Program-made: the position numbers and the translations under genes | The notes under the pieces: generated by a model | What the model was told of the DNA's origin: nothing | What the model saw: the letters and a program-made list of their open reading frames with translations, nothing else | Databases searched by the model: none | Assembly (NCBI GenBank): GCA_016213445.1 | Contig: JACRAJ010000001.1 | Coordinates: forward strand, 14,203-78,202 | From: Candidatus Azambacteria bacterium | Lineage (GTDB): Bacteria; Patescibacteriota; Minisyncoccia; UBA10092 | Direction of reading: 5' to 3' | DNA length: 64,000 nt | Part shown: positions 24,838 through 27,800 of the stretch, piece by piece | Position numbering within the stretch: the stretch's first letter is position 1 | Layout of the letters: each line of letters opens with the position of its first letter

Positions 24838-27800
24838 TTAAGTTCTTATTCTCACTTTCTTCTCTTCTTTCTTCCCGCCTTCTTTTTTCTCCGCCTCGCC
24901 CTCCGTAGCCTTGGCGAAGGAAGGTTCAACCAATTCCACATTAAGACCCAGCGATTTCAGTTCGCTTACCAAAACATTGAAAGAGGCGGGCGCGTTGATT
25001 TTTTGAATTTTCTCGCCGCGGATGATGGCGTCAAAAGCCGCCGCCCGGCCGGCAACGTCGTCGGATTTAATGGTAATCATTTCTTGAAGCGTGTGCGCCG
25101 CGCCATAACCTTCAAGCGCCCAAACTTCCATTTCGCCGAATCTCTGGCCGCCAAATTGCGCCCGGCCGCCAAGCGGCTGTTGGGTGATAAGCGAATAAGG
25201 GCCGACGGAGCGCATATGAATCTTGTCTTCAACCAAATGGTTAAGCTTCATTACGTAAATGACGCCAACGGTAATTTTATCGTTAAAAGGTTCGCCTGTG
25301 CGGCCGTCAAAAAGAATTACCTTTCCATCTTCAGGCAAACCGGCTTTTTTGAGTTCGGCTTTAATATCGTCTTCCGTGGCGCCGTCAAGCGCCGGGGTTG
25401 CGGCGCGATAGCCTAATTTGCTGGCGGCCCAACCCAAATGGGTTTCCAATATCTGGCCGATATTCATTCTGGAAACCACTCCCAAAGGATTTAAAATAAT
25501 ATCAACCGGCGTGCCGTCGGCAAGATACGGCATATCTTCTTCGGCGACGATTTTTGAAATAACGCCTTTGTTGCCGTGGCGGCCGGCCAATTTGTCTCCG
25601 GCCTGAATTTTTCTAAGCTGGGCGATTTCAACTTGGATTCTCTTTAAAACGCCTGGATCAAGCTTGTCGCCTTTGTCGCGGGAAAAAATTTTGACGCCGA
25701 CAACGCGCCCTCTTTTGCCGTGAGACAATAAAAGCGACGTGTCTTTGACATCGCGCGCTTTCTCGCCGAAAATCGCTTGCAATAATCTTTCTTCGGAAGT
25801 GAGGTCGGCTTCGCCCTTGGGGGAAATTTTGCCGACCAAAATATCGCCGCTCGCCACTTCGGCGCCGATTCTCACGATTCCTTCTTCGTCAAGATTTTTC
25901 AGTTTTTCCTCGGAAACATTGGGAATGTCGGGCGTGGTGATTTCCGGGCCGAGTTTGGTGTCGCGAACATCGATCGGGTAATCCTCGATGTGAATCGAAG
26001 TAAAGCGGTCATCTTTAACCAAACGCTCGGAAAGAACAATGGCGTCTTCAAAATTGGCGCCGCCCCAGGAAAGAAACGCGACCACAAGATTTTGGCCGAG
26101 CGCCAAATTTCCATTTTGAGTGGCGGTGCCGTCGGCCAGCGCCTGGCCCTTTACAACCTTGTCGCCTTTTCTAACCAGCGGCTGTTGGCTCATCGAAGTA
26201 AACTGGTTCGACCGTAAAAAATTATTTAATTTGTAAACCCTTGATTTATCTTTCAGCTTGTCGCTCGCCGCCTGTCGCTTGCCGCTTTCTTCAACGGCAA
26301 TATGCTGCGCGTCAACGCTTGCCACAATGCCGTCTTCAACGGCCGTAATCACTTGTCCGGAATCCGTCGCCGCTTTTCCTTCCATTCCGGTGCCGACCAA
26401 AGGCGCCTGCGGTTTGATGCAGGAAACAGCCTGCCTCTGCATGTTCGAACCCATTAAAGCGCGGGTGGCGTCATCGTGTTCAACAAACGGAATCAAGCTG
26501 GTGGCCACGGAAAAAATCTGCTGCGGAATCACATCCATATATTGGACTTCTTCCAGCTTCACCATCCGAGGCTTGCCCGCCACTCTCGCTTCCACAACCG
26601 GATCCGTTATTTTGCCATCTTTGTCATATTTGGTTCCGCCGTGGGCGATAACATATCTTTCTTCGTCAAAAGCGTTGAGCCAATCGATTTCGCCGGTGAT
26701 TTTATTGTTTTTTACTTTTACATAAGGCGTTTCAATAAAGCCGAGCTCGTTGACTCGCGCGTAAGAAGTTAAGTGAACCACCAAACCGATATTCGGGCCT
26801 TCCGGAGTTTCAATCGGGCAGATACGGCCGTAGTGCGAAGTGTGCACATCGCGAACTTCAAATCCGGCTCGTTCTCTTGTGAGGCCGCCGGGACCCATGG
26901 CCGAAATTCGGCGCTTGTGTTCAAGCTCGGCCAGGGGATTAACCTGATCCATAAACTGCGCCAATTGGGAAAAAGTGAAAAACTCCTTAACCGCCGCCAT
27001 CATCGGCCGCACGTTAACAAGCTGGGCCGGCGTTAAAGTTTCAATGTCGTAGGTGCTCATCCGGTCGCGAATGATGCGATCCATTCTCGCGAATCCGACG
27101 CGAAGTTTCGCTTGCAAAAGCTCGCCCAAACTGCGCACCCGCCTATTGCCCAAATGGTCGATATCGTCGGGAATCGCGTCTTCCGTATTGTTCAAACGGA
27201 TGATTTCGGAAACAATGCGAATCAAGTCGTCGAAACCCAAAAGCATCTCTTCTTTGCTGTATTCAAATTTATCACCTGTCGCTTGTCGCTTGTCGCTTGT
27301 CGCCCCATTAAGCCTTTGATTAACCTTAAATCGGCCCACTTTCGCCAAATCATAGCGATCGGTCCTGAAAAATATGCCTTCCACCAATTGTTTGGCATTT
27401 TCGGCGGTAGCCGGATCGCCGGGCCGAAGGCGGCGATAAATTTCAACGAAAGCTTCGGCGGCGTTTTTCGACGGGTCTTTTTTTAAAGTCGCTTCTATGT
27501 GCTTGATGGCGCCGGTGTCTATATCTTTGAAAAGCTTCAAAAGGTCTTCATTGGCATCGCCAACATTTGACATTTGATCTTTGACGTTCGACTTATATTG
27601 CTTGTCGCTTGCCAATTGTTTCCTGCCAATTGCCGATTGCCGCGCGGCAAAGATGCGCAGAAGCGCCGTCACCGGCGTTTTGCGCTTCCGATCGATTTTA
27701 ACGCTGATAACTCCGTCCGAATCGGTTTCAAATTCAAGCCAGGCGCCGCGATTCGGTATCACTTTGGCGCCAAAAAGCTTTTTGTTTCTATACAGCGAAG

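Follow-up and report, generated by a model that had tools for sequence, protein, structure and literature searches.

Heterocystous cyanobacteria carry short tandemly repeated repetitive sequences (STRRs) with the heptanucleotide units CCCCAGT, TTGGTCA and CAACAGT. These cyanobacterial heptamer repeats, described by Mazel in 1990, are said to lie mainly between genes. Here, we analyse three tracts of tandem 7 nt units that are located inside a gene, rpoB, which encodes the β subunit of RNA polymerase in a Candidatus Azambacteria bacterium. RpoB, a standard marker in phylogenetics, is one of the most highly conserved proteins of bacteria. The stretch of DNA that was analysed, hereafter the window, comprises 64,000 nucleotides (positions 14,203–78,202 of contig JACRAJ010000001.1). 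The three rpoB tracts in it are local cases of a genome-wide, fast-changing heptamer habit and not a speciality of rpoB.

Heptanucleotide units are in excess among the long simple sequence repeats (LSSRs) of prokaryotes, and polymerase slippage has been proposed as their origin (Mrazek, Guo and Shah 2007, as summarised in PMC4679880 and PMC4692102). According to the same two summaries, surveys of simple sequence repeats (SSRs) find units of multiples of three nucleotides to be the likeliest inside genes. The TAACTGA heptamers of Beggiatoaceae, which contain stop codons in the forward orientation, are mostly intergenic and are under-represented on the coding strand (PMC4679880). The GGGNATC repeats of Xanthomonas and Nostoc are also mostly intergenic and under-represented on the coding strand, and they form G-quadruplexes (PMC4692102). 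Rickettsia palindromic elements (RPEs) are selfish palindromes of about 150 bp with a conserved peptide that occur in frame in protein-coding genes (PMC10969869). The known inserts of the β subunit itself, such as β-i4/SI1 and β-In5, are mostly folded domains of 50–120 residues that are stable within a phylum (Lane and Darst 2010 as cited in bioRxiv 10.1101/2021.06.06.447298). A search of one literature library for heptamer or simple-sequence repeats in the Candidate Phyla Radiation (CPR), Patescibacteria or Parcubacteria returned nothing relevant.

The rpoB open reading frame (ORF) spans window positions 24838–28221 on the minus strand and encodes 1127 amino acids, as given by the ORF list and the translation; rpoC lies downstream (21093–24701). 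Against the β chains of solved bacterial RNA polymerases the E value is 0, and a protein search retrieved a 100% identical protein from Candidatus Azambacteria, annotated as 'DNA-directed RNA polymerase subunit beta' and encoded on a 280-kb contig, in agreement with the CPR host that the initial annotation had presumed. The gene, the repeat units and the translations are real and as that annotation described them. Tract 1 (26258–26285, minus strand) consists of the units GCGGCAA, GCGACAG, GCGGCGA and GCGACAA and encodes SGKRQAASDK (residues 646–655). Tract 2 (27269–27303, minus strand) consists of three copies of GCGACAA together with GCGACAG and GTGATAA, encodes ATSDKRQATGDK (residues 307–318) and lies, as that annotation stated, between the FKVNQRL and DDIDHLGNRR segments. 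Tract 3 (27563–27648, minus strand) encodes residues 192–220. It had been described as a degenerate seven-unit array with, on the plus strand, the units AATTGTT, TCCTGCC, AATTGCC and GATTGCC; these are present, but period 7 runs on to 27563, so that the tract extends over 86 nt and about 12 degenerate units. On the coding strand these read GGCAATC, GGCAATT, GGCAGGA, AACAATT, GGCAAGC, GACAAGC, AATATAA, GTCGAAC, GTCAAAG, ATCAAAT and GTCAAAT, and the tract combines three types of unit (GGCAATT-like, GACAAGC and GTCAAAT).

Tandem Repeats Finder reports period 7 in tract 2 (27277–27303, 3.9 copies, 100% match) and two rows in tract 3 (27563–27585 and 27624–27642). The self-identity at a lag of 7 nt is 0.68 for tract 1, 0.80 for tract 2 and 0.57 over the 86 nt of tract 3. 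All other rpoB windows of equal length have a mean of 0.24 and maxima of 0.35–0.54 (0.35 for the length of tract 3), and each tract exceeds every one of them. By these two measures and by unit parsing, the rpoB tracts contain at least three head-to-tail copies of a 7 nt unit and belong to the heptanucleotide SSRs. Since 7 is not a multiple of 3, a run of units is read in all three frames; the resulting peptides are hydrophilic, of low complexity and periodic over seven residues, being cyclic permutations of ATSDKRQ or AASGKRQ.

Period 7 dominates the whole window. Allowing up to two mismatches, GCGACAAGCGACAA has 28 matches in the window, compared with 0.61 expected from shuffled sequences. 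A sliding periodicity test that required at least 13 of 14 matches was positive in 102 windows for period 7, in none for periods 5, 6 and 8 and in two for period 9. Under a strict definition, there are 11 arrays of period 7 and none or one of each other period from 4 to 12; the window thus holds dispersed arrays with period 7 standing above its neighbours, as in the SSR class. At a relaxed threshold, 20 heptamer arrays are found in 64 kb. This density of 0.31 per kilobase is about 17 times that of non-cyanobacterial rpoB loci of unrelated genomes (0.018 per kilobase in 1.4 Mb) and compares with 0.24 per kilobase in cyanobacterial loci, where heptamer repeats were seen in the Nostoc and Desmonostoc loci L053 and L054. 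The control set consisted of 80 rpoB loci (1.5 Mb) from a contig scan with the whole RpoB, in which the best locus among the matches listed is 65% identical. Loci of close relatives were obtained through a protein search and exact-sequence contig look-ups, and eight of these have heptamer densities of 0.11–1.35 per kilobase.

Ten arrays in the window belong to a single unit family, GCGRCAN, and the remainder are AT-rich (TTGAAAA, TTAGAAA and similar). Housekeeping genes contain most of the arrays, in frame, and spacers contain the others. The emphasis of the initial annotation on 'rpoB alone' needs correction in that the gene is not exceptional, as ArgRS likewise contains three arrays in frame (53340–53374, 53914–53948 and 54131–54165, minus strand), with GCGACAA, GCGGCAA and GCGACAT units. 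Through this shared GCGACAA family the rpoB tracts join a set that spans the genome. IleRS has two in-frame arrays of GCGGCAA and GCGGCAG units (50966–50993 and 51352–51386, minus strand) and one of AT type. MetRS has four GCGGCAA units in frame (42588–42615, minus strand) that encode SGKRQAASGM, nearly the peptide of tract 1. Further in-frame arrays are found in TatD, LeuRS (two, of AT type), rpoC and PolX. Compared with Campylobacter ArgRS (PDB entry 3fnr), the middle ArgRS array (residues 257–268) is an 11-residue insertion.

Within the β subunit, the tract sites are variable, insertion-tolerant loops and not conserved residues. The lengths of 70 RpoB homologs with 77–85% identity range from 1078 to 1143 residues, and almost all of this variation is found at the three tract sites, the neighbouring KDIDTG site, rare sites at ∼506 and ∼536 and the C-terminal tail. 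Site 1, occupied by tract 1, corresponds to E. coli residues ∼737–747 and aligns residue for residue with B. subtilis Glu696–Gly705, an insert of ten residues that is specific to that species and juts out of the enzyme (bioRxiv 10.1101/2021.06.06.447298). Tract 1 forms a β-hairpin loop that faces an 11-residue gap in the alignment with the RpoB of PDB entry 8i23. Site 2 corresponds to E. coli ∼411–415 in the β lobe; between the same conserved blocks B. subtilis has residues 281–396, which constitute the Firmicute β-In5 insert of the major lobe (bioRxiv 10.1101/2021.06.06.447298). Site 3 corresponds to E. coli ∼213–216 in the connector N-terminal to SI1/β-i4 (225–343), which places it ten residues before the start of SI1 in the alignment. 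The tracts are thus located at points of β where other lineages carry extra sequence.

The initial annotation had suggested, by eye, that the tracts fall in segments that differ in length from E. coli RpoB, and had asked whether they map to known dispensable regions and are missing from sister lineages. The alignments place all three in length-variable segments, at none of the sites on residues that are conserved throughout RpoB, and these segments match points at which β is known to vary. Absence from sister lineages holds at a distance, where CPR RpoBs with 67–70% identity have zero residues at all three sites, but not among close sisters, which carry other heptamers or hairpin modules there. 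An AlphaFold2 model of RpoB from a 37-sequence alignment is poor overall (mean predicted local distance difference test, pLDDT, of 49; predicted TM score of 0.35) and was used only to locate local troughs in confidence. In this model, the pLDDT drops below 50 at residues 201–219, 307–320 and 648–658 within a lobe modelled at 62–88, and residues 648–658 form a loop between two predicted strands. The tracts are not folded domains: they comprise 10–29 low-complexity residues, coincide with low pLDDT and vary in sequence between genes that are 98–100% identical elsewhere.

In relatives with about 80% identity, these rpoB sites are occupied by other heptamer units or by small hairpin modules. The locus L081 has five GCAACAA units at site 1, with the same LKDKSRVY flank as the window, and four GCGACAA units at site 2; L082 has four AAATCCG units at site 2 and a palindrome at site 3; L083 has AATCTCA units at sites 1 and 3 and ACAACAA units at site 2; and L086 and L087 have at site 2 four units of CAAGCTC and AAAATCA, respectively. 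AAATCAC is a further unit among those at the rpoB sites of relatives, and the RpoB alignment contains additional peptides of heptamers read in three frames (KSKIKNQ, TTNNKQQ, APSSKLQ, ISNLKSQ and RNMKHET). Tract 3 had been viewed as an older insertion that is drifting. It is shared at the same site with L257 (85% identity), whose copy has more regular units, but L081 has tracts 1 and 2 in common with the window at a similar distance (84% identity), so that tract 3 is not demonstrably older; nor is its irregularity a matter of decay only, since different unit types make up the 12-unit composite.

Apart from the heptamers, a 30 nt module, TCCGCCAAAGGCGGATCCGCCTCCGGCGGA, which encodes SAKGGSASGG, appears in rpoB as a clean insertion or deletion between the near-identical alleles of L087 and L086. 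It belongs to double-hairpin modules of the form TCCGCCAAAGGCGGATCCGCC(TCC/TTT)GGCGGA that encode SAKGGSA[S/F]GG. In the window, these are present at 1259–1288 and 54391–54420, in frame in a methyltransferase ORF and in ArgRS, and across the clade they occupy four different RpoB sites.

The fast turnover of the tracts follows from genes that are otherwise identical and differ only at or beside them. L082 and L085 derive from different samples, and in 3.3 kb their rpoB genes (L082, 4918–8274; L085, 4022–7387) differ at only 55 columns. Of these, 41 lie in a patch in which the site 1 array, of GAAACAT type in one and AAATCAC type in the other, is replaced together with about 75 nt downstream. 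The remaining 14 lie in a 64 nt patch that ends 30 nt upstream of an unchanged site 2 array. At nine of these 14 columns L085 has the state of the L258 lineage, which argues for imported DNA and not for random mutation. The rpoB genes of L086 and L087 form a mosaic of identical and 5%-divergent blocks with boundaries at or near the repeat sites, and the (CAAGCTC)4 array of one has been swapped as a whole for the (AAAATCA)4 array of the other at constant position and similar length. The repeats either start recombination or stop it as heterologies. At each site the alleles are scattered over the RpoB tree. A difference of seven residues, equivalent to three units, within the same unit is seen at site 1 between the proteins P0035 (ENQKSGQ) and P0053 (ENQKSKIKNQNDGK), at the protein level only.

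All arrays inside genes keep the reading frame. The rpoB frame is intact in the window and in the 120 homologs listed, and the conserved domains continue in frame on both sides of the tracts. In the LeuRS array at 40189–40221 (unit ATTTCTA), the third copy is ATTTCCA, and this is exactly the copy that would otherwise give an in-frame TAA; it looks like a trace of selection against stops in a repeat that is read in three frames. A metagenome scan for three GCGACAA units returned at least 120 loci of very varied G+C content. In long ORFs of low-GC metagenome contigs, arrays of at least three units are read in the sense direction (ATSDKRQ) 35 times and in the antisense direction (LSLVACR) five times among the matches listed. 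Their hosts, on the same basis, include IleRS, PheRS-β, LepA, RecG and ArgRS, the last with its array at the domain boundary where the window also has one. Perfect runs in 114 metagenome loci, again among the matches listed, comprise 61 of three, 39 of four and five of five units. This decay from three units is the pattern of an ordinary microsatellite and rules out a preference for four-unit arrays. The idea that GCGACAA is a special unit was also discarded: in viral contigs it has 19 matches, compared with 23, 5 and 2 for three controls of the same composition, the scrambled unit GCAGACA being the one with 23.

Taken together, the tracts are probably heptanucleotide microsatellites of the STRR or LSSR kind that selection has filtered to permissive loops and that are turned over by slippage and short-patch recombination. 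In this mechanism, a process common to the lineage would generate arrays of about three to five 7 nt units throughout the genome at an STRR-like density, most likely by strand slippage. Arrays would survive in essential genes where they fall in a permissive loop, keep the frame, are free of stops in three frames and encode hydrophilic residues; such filters are evident from the intact frames, the stop-avoiding substitution and the 35:5 sense bias. Turnover would then proceed through slippage steps of three units, homogenisation of units and decay, together with recombination of short patches among strains, which the otherwise identical genes with differences at or beside the tracts show. A specific role of the tract peptides in transcription is improbable.

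Several observations weigh against this explanation. That a genome should have a single unit family at ten or more unlinked sites, and its relatives different ones, is not accounted for by local slippage on its own. Nor does such slippage explain the ∼65 nt three-type composite of tract 3, which occupies site 3 in both the window and L257 but site 1 in L258, and which was found nowhere else in the window or the fetched loci. Its occurrence at another site of rpoB points to copying or recombination and not to a single old insertion that drifts in place. Growth by a single unit shifts the frame of an essential gene, so an array there must be born by a step of three units or be imported complete. 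No pair that differs at the DNA level only in the copy number of one unit was found; the close pairs that were compared show replacement of whole arrays. Two of the three ArgRS arrays occupy stretches that are equal to or shorter than their counterparts in 3fnr and add no length, which implies that arrays can overwrite loop sequence besides inserting into it. Finally, the microsatellite explanation does not account for the period being 7.

Some of these observations would be expected if the tracts were copies of tiny mobile or copy-pasted elements, comparable to RPEs or to the small dispersed repeats of cyanobacteria, that an enzyme writes and of which the in-frame loop copies are selected. 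The writing enzyme could be a Y1 transposase similar to the tyrosine transposases associated with repetitive extragenic palindromic (REP) elements (RAYTs), or an activity of recombination or templated synthesis. Copying would suit the genome-specific unit families found at many loci, the placement of the tract 3 composite at different rpoB sites in different genomes and the exchange of whole arrays at a fixed position in L086 and L087. The same sites also receive palindromic modules, of which TCCGCCAAAGGCGGATCCGCCTCCGGCGGA is cleanly gained or lost and has in-frame copies in two further window genes, and an IS200-like Y1 transposase ORF is present at 16407–17087 (minus strand). Nevertheless, we regard copying as unlikely. 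The flanks of 14 arrays contain no conserved ends, target duplications or inverted termini, and the heptamer arrays are non-palindromic, unlike the known REP or RPE substrates. With the RAYT model the Y1 ORF reaches 37 bits, below the cut-off of 80, and nothing ties it to the arrays. The run lengths of (GCGACAA)n fall off as those of ordinary microsatellites do, and the unit is no more common than GCAGACA in viral contigs. In its widest form, this idea would mean that a clade of Parcubacteria owns an undescribed activity that writes heptamer arrays of about 30 nt and hairpin modules of 15–30 nt into permissive loops of essential genes, which we consider rather improbable. If true, loops of RpoB and of aminoacyl-tRNA synthetases would be exchangeable cassettes that differ between otherwise identical strains.

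The Y1 ORF encodes 226 amino acids, weakly matches the Pfam family Y1_Tnp with an E value of 1.9 × 10−7 and is the only transposase-like ORF in the window. A perfect direct repeat of two 16 nt copies, TAGGTCAATAGGTTTC, is located just upstream of it at 17090–17121. The Y1 ORF is a possible mobiliser of the hairpin modules.

We give little credence to an adaptive view, in which the three loops would be hypervariable patches on the surface of RNA polymerase, for example for escape from phage or host proteins that bind the β lobe, with repeats and recombination supplying the variation. The β lobe has been described as a platform for the binding of lineage-specific factors, rpoB genes with 98–100% identity elsewhere differ at these three sites, and the alleles at each site are distributed regardless of the RpoB tree, all of which would be in line with such a role. 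However, we know of no factor that interacts with these loops, and the same arrays are present in aminoacyl-tRNA synthetases, TatD, a transporter and intergenic spacers. As they thus occur in cytoplasmic enzymes without obvious antagonists as well as in spacers, the variability follows the repeats and not RNA polymerase.

It is highly improbable that the tracts are low-complexity sequence arisen by chance, which the GCGACAAGCGACAA counts, the period scan and the lag-7 values exclude, or assembly artefacts, as equivalent arrays exist in independent assemblies from different samples, or phase-variable or bypassed frame-switching sites, for although repeat units whose length cannot be divided by three are typical of contingency loci, the frame is intact with conserved domains in frame on both sides in every homolog examined, the hosts (rpoB and aminoacyl-tRNA synthetases) are essential and an off state of rpoB would not be viable.

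Two further candidates were rejected. Translational bypass or micro-introns are unnecessary, since all tracts are in frame and free of stops. Targeting by a diversity-generating retroelement does not fit, as the changes are not adenine-specific and there is no template repeat, despite the cassette upstream in L258. That cassette (L258, 1199–2909) is a pair of bAvd and reverse transcriptase genes for which no link to the heptamer tracts was seen. Genes for four-helix bundles resembling 23S-rRNA-IVP/bAvd lie just upstream of rpoB in L082 (4514–4873), L083 (6462–6839) and L085 (3600–3977).

Among the arrays outside genes, AT-rich units of the GAAAATT and TTAAAAA types occupy the spacer immediately before the rpoB start codon (28228–28342, minus strand), and an array of the AGAAATT type occupies the spacer between rpoB and rpoC and ends at the rpoC start codon (24704–24771, minus strand). 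No obvious Shine–Dalgarno sequence is present between these arrays and the two start codons, and the arrays are reminiscent of the TAACTGA repeats that Beggiatoaceae have near start codons. After the IleRS stop codon and before a RecO domain, two GCGACAA-type arrays lie 20 nt apart in opposite orientation (50044–50112); they could form a stem of about 13 bp and may act as a terminator-like hairpin.

A fourth short-repeat module of rpoB is not a heptamer array. At 24899–24924 (minus strand), the 26 nt hairpin-like sequence CCTTCCTTCGCCAAGGCTACGGAGGG encodes PSFAKATEG in the variable C-terminal tail, and in several relatives this peptide is found at the RpoB C-terminus or at site 2. Two similar copies, at 36004–36029 (minus strand) and 36040–36065 (plus strand), form an inverted pair inside an ORF of 1779 amino acids (31893–37232, minus strand). 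This ORF combines an N-terminal HTH_17 domain with a Peptidase_S74 domain (endosialidase chaperone, of tail-fibre type), and its region is the sole stretch of the window with a positive GC skew and has the highest G+C content (0.50). The ORF may be phage-derived or may encode a large surface protein.

That three RpoB loops in one CPR clade are refilled by 7 nt microsatellites matters for the alignment of this protein and for the trimming of marker genes, and loops that differ between otherwise identical strains could be relevant to strain typing. Microsatellites whose unit is incompatible with the frame also show how much low-complexity sequence such essential enzymes tolerate; the arrays persist there because selection filters their position, frame, stop-free units and hydrophilic reading. 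The clade is a second, phylogenetically remote lineage with an STRR-like density of heptamers, and a comparison of gene content between heptamer-rich and heptamer-poor CPR genomes would be a way to approach the period of 7 and the origin of the repeats.

Compared with the cyanobacterial STRRs, the heptamers of the window have a similar density, several unit families per genome and short arrays. They differ in host phylum and in their units and are not STRRs in the strict sense, as the host is Candidatus Azambacteria and the units are of the GCGACAA, GCGGCAA, GCGACAT and TTGAAAA types instead of CCCCAGT, TTGGTCA and similar. With the TAACTGA and GGGNATC repeats they share the dominance of one family in a genome, arrays of two to six units near start codons and consequences of three-frame coding such as have been discussed for those repeats; unlike GGGNATC, the units are not G-rich. 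As with RPEs, short repeated DNA is found in frame in unrelated housekeeping genes at places that are compatible with the fold. The rpoB tracts are nevertheless non-palindromic tandem arrays of 28–86 nt, direct repeats without the inverted symmetry of RPE- or REP-like hairpins, and the hairpin modules are separate elements, among which the 30 nt TCCGCC...GGCGGA modules are the closer analogue of RPEs.

With the lineage-specific inserts of β the tracts have in common the same or adjacent positions at the surface, in the least conserved part of the enzyme. They depart from them in being low-complexity peptides of 10–29 residues that differ between near-identical strains. The heptanucleotide LSSRs of prokaryotes, as portrayed in the two summaries cited above, are likewise dispersed head-to-tail arrays of 7 nt units, mostly of few units, with seven as the favoured length and slippage as the proposed origin. 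The surveyed LSSRs differ in that here most arrays lie in frame in essential housekeeping genes and the host is a CPR bacterium with a small genome and not a large one. On present evidence there is no new kind of system at this locus; heptanucleotide SSRs are already known in prokaryotes.

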